In this document: one piece after another, positions 785 to 27,946 of the stretch | Numbering within the stretch: position 1 is the stretch's first letter | How the letters are laid out: every line of letters starts with the position of its first letter | Source of the DNA: a virus | Lineage: Duplodnaviria > Caudoviricetes | IMG/VR virus record: IMGVR_UViG_3300025639_000010 | Span: 1 to 35,207 of that record | DNA: 35,207 nucleotides | Strand: one strand, 5' to 3' | Program-made: the position numbers and the translations under genes | Notes under the pieces: generated by a model | What the model was told of the DNA's origin: nothing | Seen by the model: the letters and a program-made list of their open reading frames with translations, nothing else | Database searches by the model: none

Positions 785-804
785 GTTTGGCTTGCAAGTG
801 AAAT
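785..804. repeat. 20-bp palindromic repeat copy 1 (degenerate right half)
   Basis: GTTTGGCTTGCAAGTGAAAT, immediately upstream of the -35 of the first promoter. Confidence 0.6.
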
Positions 805-810
805 AAAGTG

Positions 811-839
811 TTGACGGCCTGAAAGTATGGTGATAATCT
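811..839 (+). promoter_or_regulatory. early host sigma70 promoter
   Basis: TTGACG (811-816), 17-bp spacer, extended -10 TGn-TAATCT (831-839), upstream of the first gene. Confidence 0.7.
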
Positions 840-881
840 GGTGTCGACTTCAACAACAACCAACCAAAAAAGAGGCATATT

Positions 882-1559
882 ATGAACACATTAACAACAA
901 CACAAACAGTAGTAAATGAAGACGCAAAGTTAGACCATAACCTAGCAAGTGACATACTCAGTAAACATGTGTTAGACCATGTTAAGGCAGAAACAAGCAC
1001 TACTGTAGCTGATGCAGGGATTAATGAGTACTTAAAAAATACCTTGATCGGTGTACCACTGACTGATGCAGTCAAAAATATCCAACAGGATTTCAACATA
1101 ATACTGTTTTGTAATTGGGAGCAACAAGCAAAGATTAGAAAGCTCTTGAATAATAGACTTTCCAACTTTACTAAGAAAGGAACAAAAGACAGTAAAGCAT
1201 ACAAAATGCAATCCGATTCAAGAGCTTTGGGTATGGAGTTGGAGCTTGGACGGGGCAAAAGTAAAGAGAAATTGCTTAAGCAAGCATACTATGCCAATAA
1301 AGCACGTAATGCAGGTGTATATACACCTGAGGACGTTAGTACAGGTTACAGCCCTTTTGTTATCACTATTAAAGAACCTACACCAGAAAAAGAACCTACA
1401 CCAGAAAAAGAAACTCAAGAAACAGAACAGTTTAACGGCATGTCGCACTTAATTGCCGCTTACAAAGTAGTGTTAGACAAACACAATAACGGTTCAGGCA
1501 CCCTGATCGGCTCAGAATATGATCGGATTGTTGCTAGTCTCCAAGTACTACAAGGCTAA
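882..1559 (+). CDS. first early protein, hypothetical (225 aa)
   Basis: RBS GAGG, directly after the sigma70 promoter; basic central region; KEPTPE x2 linker from an 18-bp tandem repeat at 1371-1406. Confidence 0.85.
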   Translation: MNTLTTTQTVVNEDAKLDHNLASDILSKHVLDHVKAETSTTVADAGINEYLKNTLIGVPLTDAVKNIQQDFNIILFCNWEQQAKIRKLLNNRLSNFTKKGTKDSKAYKMQSDSRALGMELELGRGKSKEKLLKQAYYANKARNAGVYTPEDVSTGYSPFVITIKEPTPEKEPTPEKETQETEQFNGMSHLIAAYKVVLDKHNNGSGTLIGSEYDRIVASLQVLQG

Positions 1560-1560
1560 A

Positions 1561-1580
1561 GTTTAGATTGCAAGCCAAAC
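1561..1580. repeat. 20-bp palindromic repeat copy 2
   Basis: GTTTAGATTGCAAGCCAAAC. Confidence 0.95.
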
Positions 1581-1586
1581 CTAACA

Positions 1587-1602
1587 AGAGCATGGACGCT
1601 CT
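1587..1602 (+). promoter_or_regulatory. CsrA/RsmA-type hairpin
   Basis: AGAGC-ATGGAC-GCTCT: ANGGAN hexaloop on a 5-bp stem. Confidence 0.6.
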
Positions 1603-1630
1603 ACACTTAACCTAAACCGAGGGCAATAAA

Positions 1631-1822
1631 ATGAACACACTAACACTTGATAAAACATACTTAAATCATAATCTACATGTAGCGTTAGCTTTGGAACTAA
1701 AATTAAATCCGCTATCATTTGAAGCCTTTTTAAAGCAAGGTGCTACATTGAAACCACTATTTCAGGTAATGGGCGCACTAGAATCACTTGACTTTTTGCA
1801 GTCTTATTTCGACAATCTGTAG
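1631..1822 (+). CDS. hypothetical early protein
   Basis: RBS GAGG, ORF bounded by repeat modules. Confidence 0.75.
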   Translation: MNTLTLDKTYLNHNLHVALALELKLNPLSFEAFLKQGATLKPLFQVMGALESLDFLQSYFDNL

Positions 1823-1823
1823 A

Positions 1824-1843
1824 CTTTGGATTGCAAGCCAAAC
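1824..1843. repeat. 20-bp palindromic repeat copy 3
   Basis: CTTTGGATTGCAAGCCAAAC. Confidence 0.95.
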
Positions 1844-1849
1844 CTAACA

Positions 1850-1865
1850 AGAGCAAGGACGCTCT
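1850..1865 (+). promoter_or_regulatory. CsrA/RsmA-type hairpin
   Basis: AGAGC-AAGGAC-GCTCT. Confidence 0.6.
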
Positions 1866-1899
1866 TTAACCTAAACCTAACAAGAGCGAGAATAACATC

Positions 1900-2133
1900 A
1901 TGTATAACTACCTAGTAGAAATAGCACGAGAACGTACGGAAATAAAAGTATTCACAACTAAAAAGCAAGCACTTGATTGTTTTGCTTACTATGAAGGTTT
2001 CTACGATATAAAAGTATTCCAAGGTGCGTATTCTCAATCAAATACTTTTGGACGGGAATACCTAGTTAAACGGGGATATATATTTGACAATGAGCCAGTA
2101 TACGAGTATGGTTGTTTTCAAGGCGAACACTAA
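1900..2133 (+). CDS. hypothetical early protein
   Basis: ORF between repeat modules, RBS GAG. Confidence 0.75.
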   Translation: MYNYLVEIARERTEIKVFTTKKQALDCFAYYEGFYDIKVFQGAYSQSNTFGREYLVKRGYIFDNEPVYEYGCFQGEH

Positions 2134-2134
2134 A

Positions 2135-2154
2135 GTTTAGATTGCAAGCCAAAC
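2135..2154. repeat. 20-bp palindromic repeat copy 4
   Basis: GTTTAGATTGCAAGCCAAAC. Confidence 0.95.
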
Positions 2155-2160
2155 CTAACA

Positions 2161-2176
2161 AGAGCAAGGACGTTCT
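2161..2176 (+). promoter_or_regulatory. CsrA/RsmA-type hairpin
   Basis: AGAGC-AAGGAC-GTTCT (G-U wobble preserves the stem). Confidence 0.6.
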
Positions 2177-2210
2177 ACACTTTAACCACACACACAAGAG
2201 GGTACACGTT

Positions 2211-2315
2211 ATGAAACCATCACTAGTAATTATTTTAGTTTTATCAGGGATAGTAGGTATGCTATCAAGTCTCTATTACTTATGGTGCACTGTCGCAGTG
2301 TTAGCCAGTTTATAA
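2211..2315 (+). CDS. small hydrophobic membrane peptide (34 aa)
   Basis: GAGG RBS before ATG 2211; MKPSLVIILVLSGIVGMLSSLYYLW... Confidence 0.6.
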   Translation: MKPSLVIILVLSGIVGMLSSLYYLWCTVAVLASL

Positions 2316-2335
2316 GTTTAGATTGCAAGCCAAAC
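2316..2335. repeat. 20-bp palindromic repeat copy 5
   Basis: GTTTAGATTGCAAGCCAAAC. Confidence 0.95.
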
Positions 2336-2355
2336 TCAACCAAGAGGGTACGATA

Positions 2356-3147
2356 ATGAATAAGTTAACCAAAGCAGTAAAACAAACACTAACACCACGC
2401 AAGGCAAATGGAGCAGTAGTTTACAAAGGCATCAGTCAACTAGACGGAATCACAGAAATAGTAGTAATAGTTACAGGGTTAGAAAACCCTACCAACAATG
2501 TTAAAACAGGTGACATGCTCCAAGCATGGGTGCTCATAGAAAACACACCACCTCACGAAGCGGTTAAATCAGGGTTAGACTATGCTATATGCGGTGACTG
2601 TATACATCGTGGCACGACTTGCTACGTGACAGTACACCAAGCACCACTGGCAATATGGAAAGCGTACAAGAGAGGTAACTATACCGATCTAACAAGTTTG
2701 GATTGCAAGCCAAACCGTGAGCAACTATGTGCCACATACGCAACCGCAGAACAAGGTAGAAACTTAAGGATTGGAGCGTATGGCGACCCAAGCGCAGTAC
2801 CTGTAGAAGTATGGCAAGAACTAGCGACTACCGCAGACACCACTACAGGGTACACACACCAGTGGAAAAACCCTAAGCATGCACAACTTAAGTACTTGAC
2901 GATGGCAAGCGCAGATTCTGTAGCTGACTTCAATCAAGCGCAAGCGTTAGGGTGGCGTACGTTTAGAGTTAAGAACGCAAACGATCACCTTTTAGAGTCC
3001 GAAGTAGTATGCCCTAGCACTACCGTAGGGCTATCATGCGCTGATTGTGGGGCGTGTAAAGGGCTAAAAGGAACACGACCACTGCGATCAAACATAGTGA
3101 TTGACGTACACGGTAGAGGTGTTAAAGCATTTGGATTGCAAGCCTAA
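2356..3147 (+). CDS. Cys-rich phage protein, Gp88-like / radical-SAM-like Fe-S protein
   Basis: GAGG RBS before ATG 2356; N-x-KTG, CGDC...CY, RIGAYGDP, GYTH, MASADS, C-terminal CP..CADCGAC and HG motifs. Confidence 0.6.
   Translation: MNKLTKAVKQTLTPRKANGAVVYKGISQLDGITEIVVIVTGLENPTNNVKTGDMLQAWVLIENTPPHEAVKSGLDYAICGDCIHRGTTCYVTVHQAPLAIWKAYKRGNYTDLTSLDCKPNREQLCATYATAEQGRNLRIGAYGDPSAVPVEVWQELATTADTTTGYTHQWKNPKHAQLKYLTMASADSVADFNQAQALGWRTFRVKNANDHLLESEVVCPSTTVGLSCADCGACKGLKGTRPLRSNIVIDVHGRGVKAFGLQA
2696..2715. repeat. 20-bp palindromic repeat copy 6 (intragenic)
   Basis: GTTTGGATTGCAAGCCAAAC, read as SLDCKPN. Confidence 0.95.
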
Positions 3148-3148
3148 C
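3129..3148. repeat. 20-bp palindromic repeat copy 7
   Basis: ATTTGGATTGCAAGCCTAAC, overlaps a stop codon. Confidence 0.9.
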
Positions 3149-3184
3149 TTATTACCCTACACCTAACAACATTGGAGACTAACC

Positions 3185-3658
3185 ATGAAACACTTACAAC
3201 CAGAGTACGTACTAGTAGGATTACGGGTTTACGTATACTTTAATCTACACCGTAAATGCTTTAGTGTTAAAGCACTAGAGGGTGAACACAAAGGGCGTGT
3301 AGTCCACCATACAGACAGTCTGTACCTACTTGATGTAACCTTTAAGGTTAGTCAAAAGGGGCGTGAGCGTGTCCTTAGAACTAAACGCAAGAACGTACAT
3401 GCAGGAGTTGTGGGTACTTTTGTTACAACCTTTCAGGTAGCCGATCCTGTAGACTCTGGCCAGCCTGTAACGTACAACCCGTACTTGTACACCAGTTTTG
3501 TAAGAGCAGACACGCTAACACCAGTATACACAGCAGGTGCTGTTTACTTAAGAGGACGTACTATTACGAGGTGGAATTCTTGGTACGAGCCTGTGGTACT
3601 AGAATACACTACGAAAGGAAGTTTAGCTTGCAATCCAAACTCAACAACAGGAGACTAA
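3185..3658 (+). CDS. conserved hypothetical phage protein
   Basis: GGAG RBS; VYFNLHRKCFSV, GRERVLRTKRKNVHA and VTYNPY motifs of a recurrent phage family. Confidence 0.8.
   Translation: MKHLQPEYVLVGLRVYVYFNLHRKCFSVKALEGEHKGRVVHHTDSLYLLDVTFKVSQKGRERVLRTKRKNVHAGVVGTFVTTFQVADPVDSGQPVTYNPYLYTSFVRADTLTPVYTAGAVYLRGRTITRWNSWYEPVVLEYTTKGSLACNPNSTTGD
3621..3640. repeat. 20-bp palindromic repeat copy 8
   Basis: GTTTAGCTTGCAATCCAAAC, read as SLACNPN. Confidence 0.95.
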
Positions 3659-3659
3659 A

Positions 3660-3875
3660 ATGAGCTACAGATCAGAACAGTGGTACGTGTGTGATTCATG
3701 CGGTGATGAAAAGCCCGAAGAACAGTTTAGCCTAGTATGCGTAGAGTGTTGCGTAGAATGCGAAGATGAACAGATGATAGCGGATGAAGAGGAAGCAGAA
3801 TATGAAGCCGAACAAGCCAAGCTACAAGCCAACATTGCGGAAACAAACCTTACACTACAAGCGCACAACTTGTAA
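3660..3875 (+). CDS. small acidic zinc-ribbon-like protein
   Basis: CDSC...CVECCVEC motifs, acidic tail, GGAG RBS. Confidence 0.7.
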   Translation: MSYRSEQWYVCDSCGDEKPEEQFSLVCVECCVECEDEQMIADEEEAEYEAEQAKLQANIAETNLTLQAHNL

Positions 3876-3943
3876 GGCACAGCGTGAACGCAGAGAGCAG
3901 AAGCAAGCACATGAAGCGTTCAAAGATAACTTGATATACTAGG

Positions 3944-4016
3944 TAACCCCTTGATTTATAAGGGATAAAATTAAATACAAATAAGTGTTGACACCCTTTA
4001 AACAACACTTTATACT
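3944..4016 (+). promoter_or_regulatory. second early sigma70 promoter with upstream IHF site
   Basis: TTGACA (3988-3993), 17 bp, TATACT (4011-4016); IHF consensus at 3944-3956 on the minus strand. Confidence 0.8.
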
Positions 4017-4051
4017 TGACTTAACTTTTACACACCAACAGGAGAAACACC

Positions 4052-4261
4052 ATGATGTTACTACGTTATGACACCAAAGCACAGTTAAAAGCAAGCATAG
4101 GCAAGCCCCTAAACTATACAGAAACAAGTATGTTTGGAGCAGAGTACAAACCTAACGGTAAGTTTGCAGGAGCACGTAGACCACACCTTTTAGGCGGTAA
4201 AGGGCGTGAGTGGTTTGCTGAAATCACTATGGTTAACGGCTTGATTCACAAAGTAAGCTAA
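4052..4261 (+). CDS. conserved hypothetical phage protein
   Basis: AGGAG RBS; Y-x-ETS-x-FG-x-EY and REWFAEITM motifs. Confidence 0.8.
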   Translation: MMLLRYDTKAQLKASIGKPLNYTETSMFGAEYKPNGKFAGARRPHLLGGKGREWFAEITMVNGLIHKVS

Positions 4262-4281
4262 CTTTAGCTTGCAATCCAAAC
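4262..4281. repeat. 20-bp palindromic repeat copy 9
   Basis: CTTTAGCTTGCAATCCAAAC. Confidence 0.95.
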
Positions 4282-4283
4282 AC

Positions 4284-4299
4284 AGAGCAAGGACGCTCT
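4284..4299 (+). promoter_or_regulatory. CsrA/RsmA-type hairpin
   Basis: AGAGC-AAGGAC-GCTCT. Confidence 0.6.
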
Positions 4300-4327
4300 A
4301 CACCTAAACTAACAACAGGAGAACACC

Positions 4328-5035
4328 ATGTACACAACCAGAAGTATGCCCCTACGTAAAGTAGGTAAGTTGATGAGTTTTATCAACCAATTGAACGATA
4401 AGCATGAAGCTAGTGAAGCCCTGAGCTACGAAATGGGATCATGCCACCTACGTAAAGGTAACGCCTTCTTGTACATTCAGAATGAACAAGGCAACGTGTT
4501 ACCAGAAATGGAGTCAGCTATCATACAACATATAGCCACTGGTCTTATATTCACAGACCGTACATCATTACTTGATGACCTCGCTCAGCAAGAGTACTTA
4601 CGCCACTTGTTACTGACTAGCGGTCAGGTAGAAGTCACGTTCCGCAAGAAGAACGGTGACATGAGAACCATGAATATACACATGAACAGTATGTGGATGC
4701 GTAAAAACTCAGAGTTATTGAAGATAGTACCTGAAGGAGAGTATCCTGCCACGTATGTTATGCGTACCTTACTACGTATCAAGGAAGATGACACAGAAAA
4801 CACTGCATGGACAGTGTGGGACGTAGAATGTAAGGGTTGGAGAAGATTCAGACTAGACAGCGTAGTACGCATGAAGTCGCAGAGTCGCTTACTCTTACGT
4901 GTAGTAGATGACGCTGAGTTTGAAGCAGACACCAGTGCAGACAAGGATGCGCTGTATCAAGACTGTTACGATGTTATGAAAGAGATCAAGACACTGGAAG
5001 ACCTTTACCGAAACACACCATCTTACGGAGCATAG
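4328..5035 (+). CDS. WYL_2/DUF2693 SH3-like domain protein
   Basis: VEVTFRKKNGDMRTM ... VWDVECKGWRRFRLDSV signature. Confidence 0.7.
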   Translation: MYTTRSMPLRKVGKLMSFINQLNDKHEASEALSYEMGSCHLRKGNAFLYIQNEQGNVLPEMESAIIQHIATGLIFTDRTSLLDDLAQQEYLRHLLLTSGQVEVTFRKKNGDMRTMNIHMNSMWMRKNSELLKIVPEGEYPATYVMRTLLRIKEDDTENTAWTVWDVECKGWRRFRLDSVVRMKSQSRLLLRVVDDAEFEADTSADKDALYQDCYDVMKEIKTLEDLYRNTPSYGA

Positions 5036-5037
5036 CA

Positions 5038-5448
5038 ATGACTTACTTAACACCAAGCGTGGAAGAACAAATGGAAGCACAGTTAACTGAGCAACAGTTA
5101 ACAACACTAGAACAGGAAGCAGAGGTATTCAAAACTCTACTGACTGAGTTAACGAGTCGCACTATAATAATTGCGTTAGTACACCAACGTAAACACGCCA
5201 GTGCGATACATGGAATCAGAATGTTCGCAGACAGTATAGACGGCATAGCCGCTTGTACTATTGCATGTGATGCTGACGTAAGCCAAGCACACATGAGCTT
5301 GATCTTGGACTACAGGAACTGGCTGTGTGACAGACTGAGAACAGGGGAATTAAACATTCATGGCAAACATATGTGTGCTATGTACGACCCTGAAATAACA
5401 GACAGCATAGTTTGGGATTGCAAGCCAAACTCAACCAAGGAGCAATAA
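5038..5448 (+). CDS. hypothetical protein
   Basis: GGAG RBS, contiguous in the early operon. Confidence 0.75.
   Translation: MTYLTPSVEEQMEAQLTEQQLTTLEQEAEVFKTLLTELTSRTIIIALVHQRKHASAIHGIRMFADSIDGIAACTIACDADVSQAHMSLILDYRNWLCDRLRTGELNIHGKHMCAMYDPEITDSIVWDCKPNSTKEQ
5411..5430. repeat. 20-bp palindromic repeat copy 10
   Basis: TTTGGGATTGCAAGCCAAAC, read as VWDCKPN. Confidence 0.9.
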
Positions 5449-5449
5449 C

Positions 5450-5863
5450 ATGGGAGCACGGTACACAGACCTACGGTTTGAACCGCTTAACAAGGAAGAA
5501 CGTAACCTTATGAACTGGGGTGGATTTAGTAAGTGGATGACAGGTAGAGCAGATACTGCAAAGCGTGTCAGTGGTTCAGTGAGTAAGTGGACAGACGGCA
5601 AGGTCACATGTAGTCGTATTCCTGCTACTAAGAACGTACCACACGGGGGTTTAATACTGCACCTTAAGTACGAGGGCTACACGGGAGCAGACATTAAGTG
5701 TATGTTTCCCTTTCCCCGTGAAGAGATCGACCGCATACTAGACCGTGCGGTTGGTTGGACAGAGGAAGACGGGAACAAGGTAAGCTACGACCTAAACACC
5801 AACAGAGAGTACCGCCAGTTGATGGGTGCTTATCCTTTACAACACGAACAGGAGTACAAGTAA
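5450..5863 (+). CDS. hypothetical protein
   Basis: AAGGAG RBS, contiguous. Confidence 0.75.
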   Translation: MGARYTDLRFEPLNKEERNLMNWGGFSKWMTGRADTAKRVSGSVSKWTDGKVTCSRIPATKNVPHGGLILHLKYEGYTGADIKCMFPFPREEIDRILDRAVGWTEEDGNKVSYDLNTNREYRQLMGAYPLQHEQEYK

Positions 5864-6234
5864 TGGCTAAACTAATATTAAGTCTACAACCACGAACTAA
5901 CAGCAAGTCGTACAGGTATCTACATCGGTCAGCTATGTTAGCGTTTGACCCTGCTGACCATCACAACCTATCCTTTAAGATGCATGGTAGGGACAGCCCA
6001 GTACCAAGGTTGTCGTTTACAATCAATCAGCCAGAGGTAAACGTAGACTCAACAGGCACGGGTAGGGTGTACGACATACACCTTAAGAACAAGCTGATTA
6101 GGTTCAGGGACATGATGCGTTTATGGGGCATCTGTAGCGCAAGCACAGACTACTCGTATCTTGTTATCCGTGAGTCCACAGACAGCGTACTAGACTACAT
6201 GAGGTATGAGAATACACAACGGGGAGGTGAGTGA
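5863..6234 (+). CDS. hypothetical protein
   Basis: TAATG overlap and AGGAG RBS support ATG 5863 rather than 5755. Confidence 0.7.
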   Translation: MAKLILSLQPRTNSKSYRYLHRSAMLAFDPADHHNLSFKMHGRDSPVPRLSFTINQPEVNVDSTGTGRVYDIHLKNKLIRFRDMMRLWGICSASTDYSYLVIRESTDSVLDYMRYENTQRGGE

Positions 6235-6637: not shown

Positions 6638-6642
6638 GTAAA

Positions 6643-6662
6643 CTTTAGATTGCAATCTAAAC
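6643..6662. repeat. 20-bp palindromic repeat copy 11
   Basis: CTTTAGATTGCAATCTAAAC (perfect 18-bp palindrome), just before the RNAP RBS. Confidence 0.95.
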
Positions 6663-6674
6663 TAAGGACACAAC

Positions 6675-9293
6675 ATGAGTCTTATAGATATTCAACGTAA
6701 GTACGAAGAAGCACAACTAGCGCACAGTCGTACCCGTGTACTGAATACATTTACTAAGATGGTGGCTAAAGGGGGTGGTGACAGCACCCCTGAAGGACAG
6801 GCACTTAAACGATTAGGCTTAGACAGAGTGCAAAGCACACTAGAAGAGTACTTCAGAGCACCATTACGAGGTCACAACGCTAAACAACGTGACGTAGTAA
6901 TGGTATACAAAGGCAAAGAGGACGTACTGGCATTTATGTTAGTGTCTACTGTACTACAGGTACTCTTAAAGCACCCACAGACCATGCAAAACCTAGCTAC
7001 TACGCTAAGTAAAGCACTTAACACGGACATGTTACTGGAAGCATTCCACAGCGAACACCCTAAGTTACTAAACTACATAGACTACGAGTACCGTAACCGA
7101 GGACAAGAGTACATACTTAGCCGCAAGCGTAGGTTAGCTAAGATGACTACTACCCTTGAGTACGGTAGTGTAGACCTTGCGGTTTGTTTGCGGTTGTTAG
7201 AACTACTACTTAAGTCAAATACAGGCATGTTTGAAGTCAAACGTAAAGCCCATCCTACTAGTCGTACCCTGACAGGTAAGGTAATAAAGCTGTATTTGAC
7301 TGAAGAATCACGCTTAATCATAACTAAAGTACAGGACGTACTAACTAAAATAGGAGTACTGTACAAACCCCTAGTTGTAACGCCTAAACCTTGGGATTTA
7401 AGCACTCAACGTGGCTCATCGCACGGTGGATACCACTTTACAGGTACTATTCCATTCGTAAGGCACAAAAGTAGGATAGCAAACCGTATATGGAAGCGTT
7501 TGCAGACTAAACATGCTAGATCTTCGCTACTAGGTAGGGATTTTAACGTAAATAAGGACAAACCACTGTATTTAAAGCGTTTAACTGACGTTATCAACGG
7601 AGTTCAGAACACTGAGTGGAGAACTAATCGTTTTATATTGAATGTAGCACAACATATTGTAGACAACAACATAGTAGACCCGTTGTCACCACCTGATAAC
7701 CCTAGATGTATAGGTGGTATTCCTCACATGGAGTTTTTAAACGTAGACACCATCGTTTTGATGCACAACTACGGTGAACTGTACACCACACAGAGCGGTA
7801 AGCAACGATTTGTACGCAAAGAGGACTACAAACGCTATTATACTGCCCGTGAGACAGCACTTACACGCTTGGAGTCTAACAACAGTAAACGTGTAGTCTA
7901 CAAACTAGCATTGGCACTAGCTGACGAGTTCAGCGTGTATGACAAGTTTCACTTTAGCTACAGTCCTGACTTCAGGTCACGTTTGTACCCTGTACAACAG
8001 TTGCTTAACCCACAGTCCAGTTCTAACGTAAAGGCACTACTAGAGTTCAAGAACGGTGTAGTACCTACGGACGAGGGCATATACTGGATTAAAATAGCAG
8101 TAGCTAACACAGCAGGTCAAGACAAGGAGTCATACGAAGACCGTATAGAGTGGGTAGAGTCCCACATGCAAGACATACAACAGTGCGCTGACAGCCCGTT
8201 AGAGAGCACTTCTATATGGGGTAAGGCAGATGAACCACTTATGTTTTTAAGTGGCTGTAAGGCTCTTAGAGACGGTCTGAGGGGCATTCCTGTACACTTT
8301 CCTATACCTTTAGACGGTAAGTGTAGTGGTATCCAGATATATAGTGGCTTACTACGTGACAAAGAGGGAGCGGAAGCAGTTAGTGTAGTGGAACGTTCAG
8401 CTTGCAATCCAAACTCTAACAGAAAACCTGCTGACATATACAATGCGGTTGTAGCCCGTGTAAATCTACTAATGAAGATGGGATTCCCACCTAAAACCAT
8501 CACGTTTACAGACAGCACAGCTACACGTAGGGAAATACCTACATCAGTAGAGCTTAAGAGCATGGAAGGCAACATAACACGTAGTCTGGTTAAGCGTAAC
8601 GTGATGACACAACCTTACTCAGTGACTGCACACGGTATGTATGCACAACTCAGGGAACTGTTTGAAGACATAGAAGCTAACACACCTGACCAAGTGTTCT
8701 GGCGAGGAGAAAAGTGGGTATGTATACGCTTACTGGTTATACTGAACACCAAGGCTATAAGCGACATAGTTAAAGGAGCAACTAAAGGACAGGAGTACAT
8801 TAAAAAAGTAGCATCTATGATGAACAAAGAAGGCAAAGTACTACAGTGGACTACACCGTTCTTTGACTTTCCTGTCATACAAGCACAAACAGTACGTAAA
8901 GAGCGCAGGATAACTACTTCAATAGGTAAACTTAAGTTCTTAGAGCACACAGACACGTTAGACAAGCTACGTCAGAGTAATGCTATTGCTCCTAACCTTA
9001 TCCACAGTCTGGATGCTACCCTGTTGTACTTAACAGTAGAGCGACTACTAGCATTAGGAGTTAAGGACTTCAGTTTGATACACGACTCATTCGGAGTAGA
9101 CTGTAACAGCGTAGGTAAGCTCAACATAGCACTACGTGAGAGCTTTGTAGAACTGTTTGAGTCTGACCCACTACTTAATTGGTATCAACAACTACAAGCG
9201 GAGTGTGATGTTGTATTGCCACACCCTGACACAGTAATGATTAATACATTAGACTTAAAGGAGGTAATGAACTCAAGGTACATATTTAGTTAG
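6675..9293 (+). CDS. T7-like single-subunit DNA-directed RNA polymerase (gp1)
   Basis: DFRSRLYP, motif A LDGKCSGIQ, motif B RSLVKRNVMTQPYS, PNLIHSLDA, motif C IHDSFG, C-terminal YIFS. Confidence 0.98.
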   Translation: MSLIDIQRKYEEAQLAHSRTRVLNTFTKMVAKGGGDSTPEGQALKRLGLDRVQSTLEEYFRAPLRGHNAKQRDVVMVYKGKEDVLAFMLVSTVLQVLLKHPQTMQNLATTLSKALNTDMLLEAFHSEHPKLLNYIDYEYRNRGQEYILSRKRRLAKMTTTLEYGSVDLAVCLRLLELLLKSNTGMFEVKRKAHPTSRTLTGKVIKLYLTEESRLIITKVQDVLTKIGVLYKPLVVTPKPWDLSTQRGSSHGGYHFTGTIPFVRHKSRIANRIWKRLQTKHARSSLLGRDFNVNKDKPLYLKRLTDVINGVQNTEWRTNRFILNVAQHIVDNNIVDPLSPPDNPRCIGGIPHMEFLNVDTIVLMHNYGELYTTQSGKQRFVRKEDYKRYYTARETALTRLESNNSKRVVYKLALALADEFSVYDKFHFSYSPDFRSRLYPVQQLLNPQSSSNVKALLEFKNGVVPTDEGIYWIKIAVANTAGQDKESYEDRIEWVESHMQDIQQCADSPLESTSIWGKADEPLMFLSGCKALRDGLRGIPVHFPIPLDGKCSGIQIYSGLLRDKEGAEAVSVVERSACNPNSNRKPADIYNAVVARVNLLMKMGFPPKTITFTDSTATRREIPTSVELKSMEGNITRSLVKRNVMTQPYSVTAHGMYAQLRELFEDIEANTPDQVFWRGEKWVCIRLLVILNTKAISDIVKGATKGQEYIKKVASMMNKEGKVLQWTTPFFDFPVIQAQTVRKERRITTSIGKLKFLEHTDTLDKLRQSNAIAPNLIHSLDATLLYLTVERLLALGVKDFSLIHDSFGVDCNSVGKLNIALRESFVELFESDPLLNWYQQLQAECDVVLPHPDTVMINTLDLKEVMNSRYIFS
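8395..8414. repeat. 20-bp palindromic repeat copy 12 (inside RNAP)
   Basis: GTTCAGCTTGCAATCCAAAC, read as RSACNPN. Confidence 0.9.
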
Positions 9294-9298
9294 TCCAG

Positions 9299-9318
9299 TT
9301 ATCCACAAGTTATCCACA
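9299..9318 (+). promoter_or_regulatory. tandem DnaA boxes
   Basis: TTATCCACA at 9299-9307 and 9310-9318 (11-bp period). Confidence 0.7.
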
Positions 9319-9327
9319 GGATATGGT

Positions 9328-9343
9328 TAAAAGGACACTGTAT
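9328..9343 (+). promoter_or_regulatory. candidate phage RNAP promoter (class II)
   Basis: TAAAAGGACACTGTAT, 15/16 identical to 20278-20293; resembles the SP6-type GACACTATA core. Confidence 0.5.
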
Positions 9344-9452
9344 GTACAGACGATAGCGTACAGGGGGGAGGGTATGCGTAGTACCGTATGTAGTATCAGT
9401 ACTACTAGTACCCCCGTTCAAAAGTAGACTAAAAATTTAGGAGACAAGTGTA

Positions 9453-10380: not shown

Positions 10381-12011
10381 TGAACAGGGATGAGGGAGAA
10401 TTTATAAGACATGACCCTTGTCCTGAGTGTAGGAGCGGAGATGCACTAGCAGTATACGATTCAGGTACTGCTTACTGTTTCTCTTGCTCCACCTACATTC
10501 ATAAGTATGAGGAACAAGAACAGATTGCAATCCAAACAGGAGGGGCTAATATGACCCGTGATTCATTCGTAAGAGGTGAATACCTAGATTTAAATGCACG
10601 TAAAGTAAGTAAAGCAACCTGTCGCAAGTATGGCTACCATGTAGCTGATGTGCAGGGAGTTAAGACCCAGATAGCTGACTACTATGACAGTAAGGGTGAG
10701 CTAGTAGGACAAAAGGTAAGGTACGCAGACAAGACGTTTAAAGTAAGAGGTGAAGTAAACACTAAGCACTTGTTTGGTAGACACCTGTGGCGTGACAAAG
10801 GGAAACAAGTAATAATATGTGAAGGCGAGATAGATTGTCTGAGTGTAGCTGAAGCGTTTGGTGCTAAGTATCCTATAGTCAGCCTGCCCAATGGAGCACA
10901 AAGCGCAGAGCGTGTAGTCAAGAACAACCTAGAGTGGTTGGAAGGTTTTGGTTCAGTACTACTGTGGTTCGACAACGACACAGCAGGTAAGGAAGCTGTT
11001 GAAAAAGTAGTCCCACTGTTAACAACAGGTAAGGTTAAGGTAATTACTACAGGCTACAAGGATGCTAACGATGTGCTTATCAATGAGGGTAAGTCAGCAG
11101 TCGTAAGTGCTACGTATGAGGCCAGTGAGTGGCGGCCTGACGGTATACTTAGAGGTGCTGACCTGTTCAAAGAGTACAAAGAGAAACAGGTGTTTGCCAA
11201 GTGTGACTACCCGTATCCTAAGCTGAACGACATGTTCAAAGGACTACGCAAGGGTGAGTTGGTTACGTTTACAGCAGGCTCAGGTATGGGCAAGTCAACT
11301 GTGGTTAGAGAAATAGCTTACGACTTGATGCTTAAGCAAGGACAACGTATAGGTTACGTAGCGTTAGAAGAGAACTGGCGAAGAACACTGACTAGTTTCT
11401 TAGGCATGTATGTTAACAAGCCTTTGTACTACGATGATGAGCTTACACCAGAGGAAGAAAAGGAAGCATGGGACGAGACTATAGGCAAGGAGCGACTGTA
11501 CTTGTACGATCACTTTGGGTCTATTGAAACAGAGAACCTGCTTAACAAGATACGTGTCATGGTTAAAACATGTGGAGTAGACTACATTGTGTTAGACCAC
11601 GTAAGTATAGTGGTCAGTGGTATGGATACATTTGATGAGCGTAAGGCGATTGACAAACTGATGACTGACTTGCGTAGCTTAGTAGAAGAAACACAGGTAG
11701 GTATGCTTATCATTAGCCACTTACGTAGGACAGGTGAGAACAAGAACCATGAGGACGGAGCACAGATTAGCTTAGGTCAGCTACGTGGGTCAGGTGCTAT
11801 TGCTCAACTGTCTGATGCAGTGATCGGGTTGGAGCGTGACGCACAGCACGAAGAAGACGGAGATACAATCAGGATACGTGTACTTAAGAATAGGTTTGCA
11901 GGTACGTTAGGGCAAGCTGACACTTTAAGGTACGACCATGTAACAGGACGGATAGACACTGTACTCACGGTAGAGGAAGAGGAGATAGACTTTGACAACC
12001 CTGACTTTTGA
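10380..12011 (+). CDS. primase/helicase (gp4-like)
   Basis: Zn finger CPEC..CFSC, TOPRIM EGEID / FDND, Walker A AGSGMGKS, DHVSI, LRGSG, KNRF. Confidence 0.97.
   Translation: MNRDEGEFIRHDPCPECRSGDALAVYDSGTAYCFSCSTYIHKYEEQEQIAIQTGGANMTRDSFVRGEYLDLNARKVSKATCRKYGYHVADVQGVKTQIADYYDSKGELVGQKVRYADKTFKVRGEVNTKHLFGRHLWRDKGKQVIICEGEIDCLSVAEAFGAKYPIVSLPNGAQSAERVVKNNLEWLEGFGSVLLWFDNDTAGKEAVEKVVPLLTTGKVKVITTGYKDANDVLINEGKSAVVSATYEASEWRPDGILRGADLFKEYKEKQVFAKCDYPYPKLNDMFKGLRKGELVTFTAGSGMGKSTVVREIAYDLMLKQGQRIGYVALEENWRRTLTSFLGMYVNKPLYYDDELTPEEEKEAWDETIGKERLYLYDHFGSIETENLLNKIRVMVKTCGVDYIVLDHVSIVVSGMDTFDERKAIDKLMTDLRSLVEETQVGMLIISHLRRTGENKNHEDGAQISLGQLRGSGAIAQLSDAVIGLERDAQHEEDGDTIRIRVLKNRFAGTLGQADTLRYDHVTGRIDTVLTVEEEEIDFDNPDF
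10518..10537. repeat. 20-bp palindromic repeat copy 13 (primase linker)
   Basis: GAACAGATTGCAATCCAAAC. Confidence 0.85.
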
Positions 12012-13843: not shown

Positions 13844-14290
13844 ATGAAACCAGTTACATTTGATATACCTATGCCACTGATTAAAGGTAAGGGAGGGGTA
13901 CAAAGATTATTGAGTGCTAACCTGTACAGGAACGCTTACTTTCACACACTGAACGCAAGTAAAGTAGAGTACGACACTGTAATAGACAGCGTACTAGCTA
14001 CATTAAAACCGTTTGCAGTACCTGTTAAGATGGAGTTCAAGTTTTACTTTACTACTAAACGCAGAAGGGACATAGATAACTTCTTGTTTCCTGTGTCTAA
14101 GTACCTTTGTGACAGCTTAACTAAGCGAGGTATTTTAGTGGACGATAACATGAAGTACTATCCTGAAGTGTCAGCCCAGTATGGAGGACAAGACGAGGAC
14201 AACCATGTCACTGTTACTATATCTAAAAGCAAGGTTAGTGTTAAAGAATTGGATTGCAAGCCAAACTTAGGTAAGGGGGAAGAAGAATGA
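13844..14290 (+). CDS. rusA: RusA-like Holliday junction resolvase
   Basis: RRRDIDN ... K..CDSL..GILVDD; AAGGAG RBS before ATG 13844. Confidence 0.8.
   Translation: MKPVTFDIPMPLIKGKGGVQRLLSANLYRNAYFHTLNASKVEYDTVIDSVLATLKPFAVPVKMEFKFYFTTKRRRDIDNFLFPVSKYLCDSLTKRGILVDDNMKYYPEVSAQYGGQDEDNHVTVTISKSKVSVKELDCKPNLGKGEEE
14247..14266. repeat. 20-bp palindromic repeat copy 14
   Basis: AATTGGATTGCAAGCCAAAC, read as ELDCKPN. Confidence 0.9.
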
Positions 14291-19243: not shown

Positions 19244-19263
19244 GTTTAGCTTGCAATCCAAAC
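19244..19263. repeat. 20-bp palindromic repeat copy 15
   Basis: GTTTAGCTTGCAATCCAAAC, upstream of nrdB. Confidence 0.95.
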
Positions 19264-22418: not shown

Positions 22419-22438
22419 GTTTGGATTGCAATCCGAAC
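22419..22438. repeat. 20-bp palindromic repeat copy 16
   Basis: GTTTGGATTGCAATCCGAAC, after the portal gene. Confidence 0.95.
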
Positions 22439-23637: not shown

Positions 23638-23762
23638 GCAAGTATAAGTATGTATAAATGCCCTATTCCTTGGACTGAGGTCTAAAGTAGTAGGACACCG
23701 TTTAAACTAACGTACACGTAAAGGAGATACATTTAATATTTATACATAGGAAATAAAGTAAC

Positions 23763-24686: not shown

Positions 24687-24725
24687 TCTTAACCTAGTGT
24701 AAGCTAGGAGTAAGTGTAGGACATA

Positions 24726-24789
24726 GGGATACATTCTAGTTTACGTGCCAACTATGGTTGCGTATGACTAGGGTGTGTCCCTTTTTTTT
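24726..24789 (+). terminator. intrinsic terminator after capsid (T-phi position)
   Basis: GGGATACATTCTAGT...ACTAGGGTGTGTCCC stem with G-U pairs, followed by T8. Confidence 0.85.
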
Positions 24790-24813
24790 CACCTCCTAAA
24801 GTAAGGAGATTTA

Positions 24814-25716
24814 ATGAAGAAGTTAAACGATGCTATCAATATCTGCCTGACTACTATAGGAGAACGACCTTTAGGTGCTACTGTAGTAAACCAAGGGGAT
24901 TCTTACTTCCATGATGTTGCGGTAGATGCGATACCTGCATGGAATATTACAACAGCGTATAACATAGATGATGAGGTAAAGCATGGCTCTCCCTCTGTAT
25001 GGTATGTAGCTAAGACAGCACACACAGGTTCTGCTCCTCCCAACTCGACAGACTGGGCAGTAGGAACTAAAGAATTAAAAGTATACACTGGAACAGCGTG
25101 GGAATCAGCAAGTACCAGTAGTTATACAGCGTCAGGACATTATTGGGGAGCATTATTCACCCAGACATCAAGACCACCGGCTTCATCAGTAGTAACACCT
25201 ATCGTAGGTATATACGAAGCTGAGTTAGCAGACATAGCTCTTGATGAAGCTAGAGTAGAATTACTAGGTAGAGGTTACTCCTTTAACACAGAGTTAGCAT
25301 GGCCTTTAATGCCAGATTCAAGCAACACAATAGTAAAGCCATTTGGTGCACTGTCAGTAGATGCTACTGCGGCTGACCCTAATTACATTATAAAAGACAA
25401 CAAGCTGTATGACAATGGTAATCACACATATACGTTCACTGACGTAGTTGAAGCCGATGTTATATGGGACATTGAATTTGATGACTTACCCAGTTATGTA
25501 CAGATATTAATAGTAGACAAGGCTAAAGCAAAACTATATTCCCGTGTAGTGGGAGTGAGTGCTTCAGATGGCACTGCTAAGATACTGAGAGATGATATAA
25601 CAATATCTACTGCGGTTTTAGCTAGTGAAGAAATGAGAGTAGGTAAATACAGTATCTATGATGATGGGTCAAGCAATAGGGCAATGAATCGTTCAAGAAA
25701 CCCATCAGGACTATAA
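24814..25716 (+). CDS. tail tubular protein A (gp11-like) with ~100-aa insertion
   Basis: DAINICLTTIGERP ... GYSFNTE, KLYD, FDDLP. Confidence 0.88.
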   Translation: MKKLNDAINICLTTIGERPLGATVVNQGDSYFHDVAVDAIPAWNITTAYNIDDEVKHGSPSVWYVAKTAHTGSAPPNSTDWAVGTKELKVYTGTAWESASTSSYTASGHYWGALFTQTSRPPASSVVTPIVGIYEAELADIALDEARVELLGRGYSFNTELAWPLMPDSSNTIVKPFGALSVDATAADPNYIIKDNKLYDNGNHTYTFTDVVEADVIWDIEFDDLPSYVQILIVDKAKAKLYSRVVGVSASDGTAKILRDDITISTAVLASEEMRVGKYSIYDDGSSNRAMNRSRNPSGL

Positions 25717-25725
25717 GGAGGAGAT

Positions 25726-27924
25726 GTGAGTGAAGTAAACCAAACTATACCTTCTTTTGTTAATGGGGTATCCCAACAGGCAGTAGAGTCACGGCATGTT
25801 ACTCAAGTAGAAGATATGGTGAACTGTAGCGTGTCTTTTGTAGACGGAACACGCAGAAGAGCACCACTTGAAAAGGTAGCCGAACTCACTGAGTTAGACG
25901 GCACAAAACCTTTCTTGTATTCATACGAGCGAGGAGACGGAGTAGAGTCTTATCTTGTAGCTATTTTAAGTGGAGCGTGGTTCGTATACAACTTAGTCGG
26001 AACAAAGATAGATGAAGGTACTGACCCCTATCTGGATATACCTGTAGGATCAGACCCAGTAGATTCATTTACTTCTACTACTATTGGTGATACTACTTTC
26101 ATTGTAAACAAAACTAAGGTTGTGACAGAGAACTCAACGTTTACACATGGTACTAGTAACACAACACAGAACCAGAAGTATGCGTACTACTGGGTTAAGC
26201 GTACTTATATTGCTTATGGTGGTACAGACAATCAGCAAGCGGCAACCTATCAGTATAAAGTAATTAACGGTAATGACATAACAACAGGAACAGATAGGAC
26301 AAGCATACGTCCTACTGACACCGAGTCAGCAAGTACAACAGGGGATAATGCTTACGGCAAGAACTCACTTACAGTAGCTAACTCTATCGCAGGGGATATT
26401 GGAGGTAGTAACTCAGGGTCAGTACTCCGTAGATTGAAATGGAATGCGTCAGGAGTACCCACAGGTACGTGGGAAGTATCTGACACATGGGGTAATATGG
26501 CTTCCGAAGGATGGTGGGGCTACATGAGTAAAATACAAGACCTTCCTAGTGACATGGGTGAATACTCTGGTAGCAATACGCTAATCAAGATAACAGGAGA
26601 TGAGAAGAATCAGTTTGAAGGTTTCTGGGCTACACATGAAGATGGTATATGGAAAGAGTCAATAGCATCAGGTTTAAAAACAGGTATGGACAAGGCTACA
26701 ATGCCCCATACACTTGTTCGTAATACATTAACTGACTTTACGTTTGGAGAGTTTGACTATACTGACCGTAAGGTAGGGGATGACTTTACTAACGCTATGC
26801 CTAGCTTTGTAGGCTACACAATAGAAGACTTATTCTTTTATCGTAACCGTTTAGGTATGATTAGTAGAGACTCTATTATCTTAAGTGAAGTAGGGTTGTA
26901 TGAGAACTTCTTTAGGACTACTGTTACTGACCTGCTTGCTACTGACCCTGTGGATGTAGCTGTTGACTCAAATAAAGTAGTCAACCTTAAATATGCTGTA
27001 CCTTTTAAACGTAACTTACTACTGTTTGGAGCTAACGCACAGTATATTCTTAGTTCTGAGAACGAGTTAAGACCCGATACTGTGTCTATCAGTCAGTCAA
27101 CTGAGTACAGTTTAAATCCTAATACGAAACCTATGGCAATCGGCCCGAATACTTACTTTACAGTAAATAAAGGGGAAGGCACACAGGTAAGGGAGTACTA
27201 CAATGTACCTGACTCTGTTGATAATATAGCTGAAGATGTAACAGCACATGTTAGTGAGTATGTACCTAAGAATGCTGTTGATTTAGAAGGCAGTGACAAG
27301 TATGACATGTTGTTTATCCTTGCTGAAGGCTCAGATGCTAATAAGTATAGAGCTAATATCTATGTCTACAATCAGACATGGGAAGGTACTAAGAAAGCAC
27401 AGTCAGCATGGCATAGGTGGGAGCTTGCAAGTGCTAAGACACACATCTTGGCAATAAGAGTAGTAGGGGATCACCTATATATGATATGTCACTTTAACGA
27501 TCCTGATCTAGGCGTACAAGGCGAGATGGTACTGAAAAGAATCAGCTTGGCTAAGACAGACTTTGCAGATGAAGTTTATATGGATTTAAAAGCTGATCCA
27601 ACTCCTGCTGATATAGGACTTCCTTACACAAGCTCTATTGAGTTAAGTGAGTGGGGTTTTAACACAGGTGGTACGTCTAAGGTAGATGACAAACAAGGAA
27701 GACTACAAATAAGAAAGGTAGAGTTACAGGCTAGAACTGGATCGTCACAAAAGATCAAGGTACAAGTAGGTGATGCTACTCACACTAAAACAGGAGACAG
27801 CGCAACTGTGATGGGGGAAACCAAGAAGACAAGAATAACAATTCAAAGTGATGGAGATGCAGGGTTCTGTATTGATTCCACTAACTTAAAAGGCAGATAT
27901 AACAGTAAATCAAGAACTGTATAG
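25726..27924 (+). CDS. tail tubular protein B (gp12-like)
   Basis: GVSQQ, MPHTLVR, PSFVG, FFYRNRLG, QSAWHRW; GTG start with AGGAGG RBS. Confidence 0.95.
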   Translation: MSEVNQTIPSFVNGVSQQAVESRHVTQVEDMVNCSVSFVDGTRRRAPLEKVAELTELDGTKPFLYSYERGDGVESYLVAILSGAWFVYNLVGTKIDEGTDPYLDIPVGSDPVDSFTSTTIGDTTFIVNKTKVVTENSTFTHGTSNTTQNQKYAYYWVKRTYIAYGGTDNQQAATYQYKVINGNDITTGTDRTSIRPTDTESASTTGDNAYGKNSLTVANSIAGDIGGSNSGSVLRRLKWNASGVPTGTWEVSDTWGNMASEGWWGYMSKIQDLPSDMGEYSGSNTLIKITGDEKNQFEGFWATHEDGIWKESIASGLKTGMDKATMPHTLVRNTLTDFTFGEFDYTDRKVGDDFTNAMPSFVGYTIEDLFFYRNRLGMISRDSIILSEVGLYENFFRTTVTDLLATDPVDVAVDSNKVVNLKYAVPFKRNLLLFGANAQYILSSENELRPDTVSISQSTEYSLNPNTKPMAIGPNTYFTVNKGEGTQVREYYNVPDSVDNIAEDVTAHVSEYVPKNAVDLEGSDKYDMLFILAEGSDANKYRANIYVYNQTWEGTKKAQSAWHRWELASAKTHILAIRVVGDHLYMICHFNDPDLGVQGEMVLKRISLAKTDFADEVYMDLKADPTPADIGLPYTSSIELSEWGFNTGGTSKVDDKQGRLQIRKVELQARTGSSQKIKVQVGDATHTKTGDSATVMGETKKTRITIQSDGDAGFCIDSTNLKGRYNSKSRTV

Positions 27925-27926
27925 CC

Positions 27927-27946
27927 TTTTGGATTGCAAGCCAAAC
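27927..27946. repeat. 20-bp palindromic repeat copy 17
   Basis: TTTTGGATTGCAAGCCAAAC, after tail tubular B. Confidence 0.95.

Follow-up and report, generated by a model that had tools for sequence, protein, structure and literature searches.

Graded palindromes across a T7-like phage genome as possible operators for a phage-encoded dimer

T7-like phages are, to our knowledge, taken to regulate their genes through promoters and inhibitors of the host polymerase, not through genome-wide operator arrays. A dispersed array has been described in phiC31, a temperate siphovirus of Streptomyces, which reportedly carries about 16 intergenic palindromes (conserved inverted repeats) bound by the phage repressor c; we know of no gradient among them. 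The array reported here is likewise made of palindromes spread across a phage genome, many of them between genes, and the repressor-c cluster is a weak Atlas neighbour (0.80) of the candidate reader, gp1. Gp1 has no Pfam hit to E 1, and no sequence homology links it to the phiC31 protein.

Three further systems offer useful comparisons. According to the account in PMC9283540, the stoperators of Cluster A phages (read by L5 gp71 or the TipsytheTRex repressor) are asymmetric 13-mers oriented with transcription, are proposed to block both initiation and elongation by the host polymerase, and are bound by a monomeric repressor with an HTH and a second domain, in temperate phages. As in that account, a single phage-specific word recurs here many times over the genome, both at a promoter and between genes; in contrast, it is a palindrome of 20 bp, the candidate reader is a predicted dimer in which no HTH family was detected, and no integrase was seen in the parts of the phage lineage examined. 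The KorB protein of plasmid RK2 is described in PMC11790492 as a CTP-dependent sliding clamp that requires KorA and silences from dispersed palindromic OB operators, 4-10 bp or far upstream of its target promoters. The present array also combines dispersed palindromes with one at a promoter, its first site lying 6 bp upstream of the -35 hexamer (16 bp in the relatives L188 and L189); no CTP-clamp domain or KorA-like partner was detected for gp1, which has no Pfam hit to E 1, and the passages on OB in PMC11790492 mention no gradient, whereas this array is graded. Finally, the SAS/ESAS repeats of Cluster K mycobacteriophages are presented in PMC3203893 as gene-start repeats of lineage-specific consensus and unknown function, the ESAS having 17-bp arms, a variable spacer and an adjoining asymmetric 13-mer. 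As in those parts of that description, our repeats are tied to gene starts and have a lineage-specific consensus, but their spacing is fixed and some copies lie deep within genes.

The window, that is, the whole 35,207-nucleotide stretch of viral DNA analysed (Caudoviricetes, record IMGVR_UViG_3300025639_000010), carries 17 copies of the palindrome GTTTRG(A/C)TTGCAA(G/T)CCAAAC. The array is lineage-specific, starts at a putative first host-type promoter and thins downstream. Its features are as follows, with the strand where one is assigned.

785..804: site 1, the weakest copy, 6 bp upstream of the TTGACG of putative P1
811..837, + strand: P1, putative sigma-70-type promoter of gene 1 (TTGACG ... 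GATAAT, 15-bp spacer), identified by eye and absent from the promoter scan's list
882..1559, + strand: gene 1 (225 aa), candidate reader, an orphan
1561..1580: site 2, 1 bp past the gene-1 stop, heading a repeated leader cassette of ~60 bp
1824..1843: site 3, 1 bp past a stop
2135..2154: site 4, 1 bp past a stop
2316..2335: site 5, immediately past a stop
2696..2715: site 6, at codon 114 of the 263-aa gene 2356-3147
3129..3148: site 7, over the 3′ end of 2356-3147
3621..3640: site 8, at the 3′ end of 3185-3658 and 19 bp ahead of the following start codon
3988..4016, + strand: P2, putative sigma-70-type promoter (TTGACA-17-TATACT, 11/12)
4262..4281: site 9, immediately past the stop of 4052-4261
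5411..5430: site 10, at the 3′ end of 5038-5448
6643..6662: site 11, 12 bp before the RNA polymerase (RNAP) start
6675..9293, + strand: single-subunit RNAP (872 aa), 37.5% to Lauvirus lau218
8395..8414: site 12, at RNAP codon 574, in a length-variable loop
9333..9350, + strand: separate asymmetric word GGACACTGTATGTACAG, after two DnaA-type boxes
10518..10537: site 13, inside the primase/helicase, 13 bp before an in-frame internal ATG (10551)
14247..14266: site 14, at the 3′ end of a RusA-like gene
19244..19263: site 15, before the ribonucleotide reductase small subunit
22419..22438: site 16, 5 bp past the portal stop
27927..27946: site 17, between tail tubular B and the tail fibre

All 17 starts given by an initial annotation of this DNA were correct, and the copies lie well beyond chance: 15 sites (30 strand-matches) have two mismatches or fewer, against 0.00 expected from 100 dinucleotide shuffles. 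With a symmetric weight matrix, exactly 17 window sites score above 11, the lowest at 19.0, and the next best match in the window scores 5.2. The TTGCAA core is indeed invariant, being unchanged in all 28 sites of the window (17) and of its relative L024 (11). Seven sites fall in coding sequence, three of them internal (2696, 8395, 10518) and four over 3′ ends (3129, 3621, 5411, 14247). The early sites head repeated leaders of ~60 bp, and a small hairpin follows several of them. P2 has no site upstream and is followed by one 69-aa gene and then by site 9.

The substitutions among the sites are informative about the reader. Positions 5/16 carry G or A and their complements, positions 7/14 A or C and theirs, and pairing is kept at these positions in just 14/28 and 15/28 sites, respectively. 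On the mRNA strand, seven of the 17 sites have zero folding energy, and the best DNA hairpin among the sites reaches -3.5 kcal/mol. To judge from the sequence, such mirror-symmetric changes combined with poor hairpin pairing point to a dimeric dsDNA-binding protein, as the initial annotation had argued against an RNA hairpin. Its view that the A..G, C..T and A..T flanks are reverse complements of one another holds as regards symmetric tolerance, but not for the C..T copies as inverted A..G copies: conservation of the outer four bases is stronger in the right arm (AAAC) than in the left one, which means that the C..T copies are not true inversions. In site 785 it is the left half that is good and the right half that is degenerate. 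Altogether, we consider it quite probable that the sites are read by a dimeric dsDNA-binding protein encoded by the phage.

The leading candidate is gp1, the product of gene 1, and its earlier nomination as a binder appears sensible in view of the sites that bracket its gene and of its predicted homodimer. The protein is mostly helical with a basic middle (18 K/R versus 9 D/E in residues 61-150). No Pfam (to E 1) or PHROG family and no fold match was found for it; a search of 1.84 billion representatives gave 2 hits, neither from outside its clade, and it diverges fast (30% over 103 aa between the relatives G001 and L036). A homodimer model gave an ipSAE of 0.57, against 0.00 for the best of three controls; the mark used to call a homodimer was passed by 20 of the 30 solved homodimers tried and by one of 23 single chains. 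Runs agree in at least 80% of contacts, with a partner pLDDT of 66-73. Gp1 is therefore a predicted homodimer, and we place its identity as the reader just on the probable side.

From 1561 onward the gaps are 263, 311, 181, 380, 433, 492, 641, 1149, 1232, 1752, 2123, 3729, 4997, 3175 and 5508 bp, and successive distances from the left stand in ratios of 1.08-1.35, which bears out the near-geometric progression first described. Gap size rises with rank (Spearman 0.90). The comparison with intergenic-only placement proposed at that stage was carried out, and none of 20,000 boundary permutations reached the observed gradient; gene-boundary density does not explain it. Sites accompany 10 of 15 gene starts up to the RNAP versus 3 of 25 later (Fisher p 0.001). 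On a logarithmic scale the spacing is more even than random placement (CV 0.31 versus 0.91; 0/20,000), in a test that takes position 0 as its origin and ignores the minimum spacing imposed by gene lengths.

Position 1 need not be the left genome end, as had been assumed: same-strain contigs continue upstream, and the terminase gene ends there ~400 bp before it. No strong site occurs in the 9.1 kb before position 1 (internal virion genes and terminase on a same-strain 42.2-kb contig; best score 10.6), and there is none in the non-coding stretch upstream on that contig or in window positions 1-784. At the other end, the window right of about 29.7 kb is another phage's DNA, so that the absence of sites there is uninformative; the survey covers the true genome except for about 3.4 kb.

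The scan of relatives suggested in the initial annotation found arrays in six of the seven related loci with sufficient upstream DNA (RNAP 46-93% identical). The closest (RNAP 93%) keeps the window word, and the other five use different words. In G001, L036 and G002, whose RNAPs are 77-83% identical, all copies are related but differing 19-mers, orthologous in-gene copies included; G003 and L104 use TACTTATAAGTA and L110 uses TGTTAAGACTTAACA. No array was seen in the parts examined of L028-L032 and L106 (RNAP 51-53% for L028 and L106), which hold little or no early region. Gaps widen along the array in L024 (Spearman 0.93), L036 (0.90), L104 (0.86) and, over a whole-genome array, weakly in G004 (0.58); in G001, G002 and L036 the array ends ahead of the RNAP gene. 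Of all copies, the first is the weakest in six of seven genomes from two independent clades (window, L188, L024, G001, L036, G002) and the second weakest in L189. The copy after it overlaps the gene-1 stop, or falls only a few bases away, in the window, L188, L189, L024, G001 and L036; this comparison is confined to sequences that include the left end, as those of the G003/L104 and L110 lineages do not. The first site of L036 overlies the -35 hexamer, and in L188 and L189 the places orthologous to P1 read TTGACA-18-CATACT. Site 12 retains its DNA word in L024 although the residues differ, and in L024 and L189 the slot of 2356-3147 is filled by a gene from a different family, again with a site inside it.

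Similar organizations exist in other T7-like phages. Alphaproteobacterial T7-like (pro)phages with a DUF3102 (PF11300) first-gene protein carry palindrome arrays: a GGTGCAG..CTGCACC array is present in 6 of 10 loci with a DUF3102-type gene, and none was found beside those of L227, L229, L233 and L234. The left 12 kb of SP6 contain a 16-bp array, and the gp7 of this phage weakly matches the DUF3102 profile (E 1.3e-5, single comparison). As in the window, these are palindromes dispersed over a T7-like genome with some copies inside the RNAP and primase, and in G004, which is of the DUF3102 type, the first gene is bracketed by sites. They differ from the window in their words and flatter spacing, and G004 has an ORF read as an integrase. 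For the DUF3102-type model, the closest structural match is the DNA-binding domain of Spo0J/ParB (1vz0, Z 8.0, rmsd 3.4, 88 aligned), with a Z that lies within the tool's 'common' range for a helical domain. DUF3102 is also a weak Atlas lead for gp1 (0.82, 91 shared features). The analogy may nevertheless not extend to the gp1 protein, because HHalign gives a probability under 1% for gp1 against the DUF3102 family (0.08% for its alignment) or the first genes of G001 and L036; no ParB is among the best 50 VIA matches of the gp1 model (built from 5 sequences, pLDDT 72).

Our preferred reading, which we hold tentatively and at somewhat less than even confidence, is that the 17 palindromes are operators for a phage-made dimer, most likely gp1, that damps host-RNAP transcription beyond gene 1. 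This would be a stoperator- or KorB-like version of one earlier proposal, that the sites meter early transcription. The weak promoter-proximal site could provide for gp1 autoregulation, and because gene 1 lies between the weak first site and the strong site at its stop codon, gp1 would be the one product still made once all the sites are occupied. Dimers on the sites would occlude the promoter and block elongation, a mode of action toward which we lean slightly, and would be densest where host-polymerase traffic is highest. The outcome might be shut-off of the early region in lytic growth, or silencing of an integrase-less carrier state. T7-type genome entry is transcription-driven, so slower entry would follow as a side effect.

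A different possibility is structural docking, in which graded phage dimers pull, pace, compact, tether or shield the DNA and transcription is affected only secondarily. The log-even spacing, the widening gaps in L024, L036, L104 and G004, the gain of in-gene sites where a long gap would otherwise arise, the mostly coding, start-distant sites of G003/L104 and the ParB-like model of the analogous DUF3102 protein all speak for it. Yet the array begins at a promoter-like sequence instead of a DNA end, with no site in the first 784 bp or the upstream non-coding stretch, and in relatives it is early-only (G001, G002, L036) or nearly flat (G004), which weakens the entry-coupled ratchet and nuclease shield put forward initially. 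A ratchet should also be needed most late in ejection, and the log-evenness has the dependencies given above. We regard docking as unlikely. Positive elements at gene starts, either phage-RNAP promoters or phage-activator sites that make 5′ ends before ribosome-binding sites, are improbable. Fourteen of the 17 sites do lie 12-77 bp 5′ of a start codon, one being the internal primase/helicase start, at whose equivalent L110 also has a site; late sites precede the scaffold region and tail fibre, and the small hairpins noted above would fit as well. However, a single-subunit RNAP would not be expected to tolerate mirror-symmetric changes, and a T7-type promoter would be an asymmetric word before late genes including capsid. 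Here the capsid gene is preceded by a different word and by no site, the late regions examined of G001 and G002 lack the palindrome, and five of nine G003 sites are deep in coding sequence. The word at 9333..9350 is a candidate phage-RNAP promoter or origin word; similar asymmetric words follow the RNAP in relatives, and one is found both there and before the capsid gene in lineages whose palindromes differ. The initial annotation, which did not recognise the palindrome as a T7-type promoter, was probably right.

Reading by a host regulator or nucleoid protein is very improbable, even though host-type boxes (DnaA-, IHF-, sigma-54- and parS-type) crowd the left 780 bp and three bacterial genomes checked each contain 3-9 exact copies of the C..G palindrome, within longer repeats that come mainly from Burkholderiales. 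That form is not among the 16 full window sites. The proposed motif scan of host genomes gave the 16-bp core only once each in 9 of 401 sampled genomes, in the class of G009 (Psychromonas), which may not be the host's class. Since the word changes between phages with RNAPs 77-83% identical and no multi-copy host regulon was found among the bacterial genomes sampled, the phage half of the initial "phage or host protein" is the likelier one, although a narrow host regulon is still conceivable. RNA or single-stranded DNA hairpins, serving processing, stability or a REP-like role, are a faint prospect. REP elements directly follow stop codons, as many sites do, a REP-like repeat family shares the word, and G.T wobbles are mostly on the bottom strand (22 versus 6). 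REP/BIME elements are, however, extragenic hairpins with a constant 5′ tetranucleotide, whereas seven copies here are coding, some within essential genes, folding is weak, no constant GTAG-type flank was seen at the window sites, and the relatives' 19-mers tolerate either central base. Cassettes that shuffle early genes by recombination, with no reader protein, would suit the ~60-bp leaders and the differing genes between early sites in the window, L024, L188 and L189, but cannot account for lone 12-20-bp copies inside the RNAP, primase and DNA polymerase or for the symmetric tolerance, and we give them hardly any credence.

Finally, we note what the array may mean for T7-like phages. It is a genome-wide array in a T7-like lineage whose sequenced parts, as far as examined, show no integrase; relatives repeat it using other words, and cultured SP6 has a comparable one. 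An orphan first-gene protein thereby gains a concrete and cheap binding test, and the gradient makes it possible to ask directly whether early transcription or DNA entry is governed by how the sites are spaced. It is conceivable, though we doubt it, that log-even spacing is itself functional, with gp1-type brakes pacing transcription-driven entry or silencing an integrase-less, DnaA/parS-borne carrier state. If so, a self-encoded entry timer, testable in SP6, would be common to several T7-like lineages with changing DNA words. If reader and word co-vary, such phages would supply orthogonal pairs of operator and repressor and serve as a model for the way in which binding specificity can change at many sites together.

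All 17 palindromes reported in the initial annotation are present where it placed them, and their number is far above chance. The thinning from the left end that it described was borne out as well (Spearman 0.90 for gap against rank), and gene-boundary placement, put forward as a check on the spacing, reached the gradient in none of 20,000 draws that combined randomly chosen gene boundaries with three positions taken at random. Sites accompany 10 of the 15 gene starts as far as the RNAP gene (single-subunit phage RNA polymerase) versus 3 of 25 beyond it. On a log scale the spacing is far more even than random placement (CV 0.31 vs 0.91), a result that hangs on the origin chosen and leaves gene-length limits out of account. 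Three sites are wholly intragenic. The one inside the RNAP gene falls in a loop of variable length in an alignment of 16 RNAPs, and in the close relative L024 the DNA word is conserved there though the encoded residues differ.

The layout recurs in related phages, another point on which a check had been proposed. Among 26 RNAP loci, each with at least 3 kb of upstream DNA, a clear array is found in six of the seven with RNAP identity of at least 46%, the lone exception being L035 with two copies, and in none of the 19 at 40% identity or below. Three of these 19 fell marginally within the array rule with AT-rich words and were left uncounted. L024 (RNAP 93% identical) has 11 sites at orthologous places and one weak promoter-proximal site, and the arrays of the close relatives L188 and L189 are similar to it. 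Farther relatives keep the layout with different words.

Palindrome words in farther relatives
G001: 6 copies of GTTTTACAGSCTGTAATAG, all ahead of the RNAP gene
L036: 6 copies of GTTTTACAGVCTCGAAAAC, all ahead of the RNAP gene
G002: 7 copies of GTTTTAGACAGTCGAAAAC, all ahead of the RNAP gene
G003 (9 copies) and L104 (8 copies): TACTTATAAGTA, mostly intragenic
L110: 5 copies of TGTTAAGACTTAACA

Short non-palindromic repeats were also seen: direct repeats of GCATTCGGGCA in the early region of L043-L045, and ACTCACTCAA throughout L044. Another relative, G005, has two RNAP-like genes (L184 179-2686 and 5000-7528).

Two questions about the kind of element are: (i) whether the palindrome is read as DNA or as RNA; and (ii) whether it could be a promoter for the phage RNAP. 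Across 28 sites (17 in the window and 11 in L024), positions 5/16 and 7/14 accept mirror-image bases, base pairing being kept at 14 and 15 of the 28, respectively, and 7 of the 17 window sites do not fold as mRNA. Because this tolerance comes without consistent pairing, and because of the unfolded sites, the palindrome fits two half-sites for a dimer, which agrees with the earlier preference for a dimer on double-stranded DNA over an RNA hairpin. The sites do not appear well placed as RNAP promoters, since none lies ahead of the capsid gene, the late regions of G001 and G002 have none, and another, asymmetric word occurs after the RNAP gene and before the capsid gene in lineages whose palindromes differ. 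In the window, two DnaA boxes followed by GGACACTGTATGTACAG lie after the RNAP gene (9298-9350); GGACACTGTATGTA, the same word as after the window RNAP, is found towards the right end of both L010 and L024, and a conserved GTATRTAAATGCC-like word stands ahead of the capsid gene in relatives (window 23640-23710). These words are candidate promoters for this RNAP clade.

Bacterial genomes hold few matches, as the proposed motif scan made clear. An exact-word scan of 185,579 species genomes returned 36 stretches, chiefly the perfect C..G form in Burkholderiales repeats, and the palindrome core occurs as a single copy in each of 9 of 401 sampled genomes; this distribution does not resemble that of a host regulon. 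The likeness to the Burkholderiales repeats is probably coincidence. The perfect palindrome GTTTGGCTTGCAAGCCAAAC is a module common to several different REP-like or tRNA-derived repeats (L192-L223) of Herbaspirillum, Oxalobacteraceae, other Burkholderiales and a MAG labelled Bifidobacterium, with 3-9 copies per genome in three genomes checked. That MAG has repeats in common with Burkholderiaceae MAGs, so its label may be wrong.

The most economical reading is an operator array whose reader would be a phage-made dimer, probably gp1, the 225-aa product of the first gene (882-1559). In six of seven genomes, from two clades, the site nearest the promoter is the weakest of the array; in L024 it scores 17.3, the lowest of 12, against a background of at most 7.9. 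It lies 6 or 16 bp upstream of the -35 element in the window's clade and overlaps the -35 in L036, and the second site is at the gene-1 stop. With the first site at the promoter and the next at this stop, gene 1 would be the single gene to escape a filled array. The reader dimer would weakly autoregulate P1, the putative first sigma-70-type promoter (811-837), and would stop host-polymerase read-through at every subsequent boundary; where host-polymerase traffic is lower, fewer sites would be expected.

gp1 is a helical orphan with a basic middle. It is predicted to be a symmetric homodimer, with contacts through helices 1-2 and the C-terminal domain, at a score of 0.57 against 0.00 for the best control; 20 of the 30 solved homodimers reached the mark used, as did 1 of the 23 single chains. 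The model supports a dimer and is silent on DNA binding. There was no PHROGs or Pfam match for gp1, no tblastn match for gp1 or the first genes of G001 and the distant complete genome G004 in 50,697 phage records, nothing at E <= 0.001 by Foldseek in BFVD and PDB, and no tie of fold or profile to a known DNA-binding family in structure searches, Pfam and HHalign. The top VIA match to the gp1 model, KaiA (Z 6.4), reflects just a common helical arrangement, and the best PDB sequence match, a stretch of RNAP beta (E 0.068), was taken as chance. An Atlas search with the G001 first gene gave nothing usable. A 137-aa gene at 5450-5863, also in G003/L104, was weighed as an alternative reader and is an unsupported candidate (HHalign to DUF3102 0.75%).

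The window covers most of a T7-like genome. Every gene read is on the + strand, in the order RNAP (6675), SSB, primase/helicase, DNA polymerase, reductase, portal, capsid and tail genes, and the sole long minus-strand ORF lies opposite RNAP. A search of 49 window proteins turned up no integrase family. The nearest cultured match to its RNAP is that of Lauvirus lau218 (37.5% identity), whose RNAP gene is on the minus strand (L022 5439-7934). A 42.2-kb contig identical to window 1-11556 has internal virion genes and terminase directly upstream of position 1. The terminase of this contig shares 77% identity with that of G001 and 45% with the one encoded in the right end of the window. The right arm (about 29700-35207) has a different small and large terminase, lacks internal virion genes and joins within collagen-like repeats, inside which, at 29735, agreement with the independent contig L008 ends. 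From the terminase identities and the end of L008 support, the right 5.5 kb is DNA of another phage, probably through misassembly or recombination, and position 1 lies inside the terminal non-coding region. That region is crowded with host-type boxes, which are kept in L188.

Host-type boxes in the terminal non-coding region (window 120-780)
124: parS-like box
170, 216, 290, 326, 585: five sigma-54-like boxes, none elsewhere in 28 kb
242: NtrC-like box
472-570: four DnaA boxes
652: Fur-like box
713, 753: IHF-like boxes

The boxes may be decoys or, alternatively, a mini-origin for a carrier state. Early sites are followed by a repeated leader (1581-1620, 1844-1880, 2155-2190, 4282-4315) that has a boxA-like tail and a small hairpin, GAGC...GCTC, and the gene content between the leaders varies from strain to strain.

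A structural or entry-pacing role for the array, to which T7 entry biology is the background, is unlikely and keeps what probability it has because the sites are evenly spaced. For the operator array, a comparable case is the phiC31 CIRs, inverted repeats reportedly read by a phage repressor. The proposed mode of action of the operator array is like that of stoperators (PMC9283540), but the 20-bp palindrome departs from them in the stoperator symmetry test. It is likewise similar to that of KorB-OB (PMC11790492), although the structure and profile searches linked gp1 to no ParB-like domain. The part of the literature that was searched holds no account of an array of this kind in a T7-like phage.

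Similar organizations exist farther afield. In G004, GGTGCAG-N4-CTGCACC occurs 23 times, along a weaker gradient; of 401 Pseudomonadota genomes sampled, 3 contain the word. The first gene of G004, flanked by sites on both sides, has a sub-threshold match to DUF3102 (PF11300; E 0.0018), a model nearest to a Spo0J/ParB DNA-binding domain (Z 8.0), and homologues in Roseomonas, Azorhizobium, Martelella, Bosea and Chelatococcus; of ten loci with such a gene, six have this array and four do not. A common GGTGCAGTSACTGCACC array and a DUF3102-type gene were seen in the alphaproteobacterial T7-like (pro)phages L226, L228, L230, L231, L232, L235 and G004. Six of seven cultured phages scanned over whole genomes (Lau218, CRP-143, Pasto, Lo5R7ANS, ProddE and S2B) have no clear array. 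In the seventh, LUZ100, each of the two early host promoters has TATCCACYAGCGCATA in its spacer, and the word recurs downstream of several genes; the consulted part of the LUZ100 paper mentions neither operators nor palindromes (PMC10134795). A 16-bp palindrome occurs 6-7 times in the left 12 kb of SP6, once within RNAP and once within primase, and SP6 gp7 matches the DUF3102 profile weakly and the gp1 profile not at all.

Repeated words in two cultured phages
LUZ100 (L236), TATCCACYAGCGCATA, not a clean palindrome: 377, 578, 6690, 11570, 22151
SP6 (L245), 16-bp palindrome: 493, 4805, 6093, 6264, 7071, 8547, 9383; gene 7 at 2435-3319

The G004/DUF3102 and SP6 arrays are analogues of the window array; HHalign gave gp1 no link to the DUF3102 family.

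Finally, the array may serve either lytic shut-off or a carrier state. With DnaA-, IHF- and parS-type boxes close to its end, the genome could sustain a carrier state; such boxes are found in lytic phages as well. We suggest that cultured SP6, with its 16-bp array and weakly DUF3102-like gp7, is the easiest place for testing the idea.
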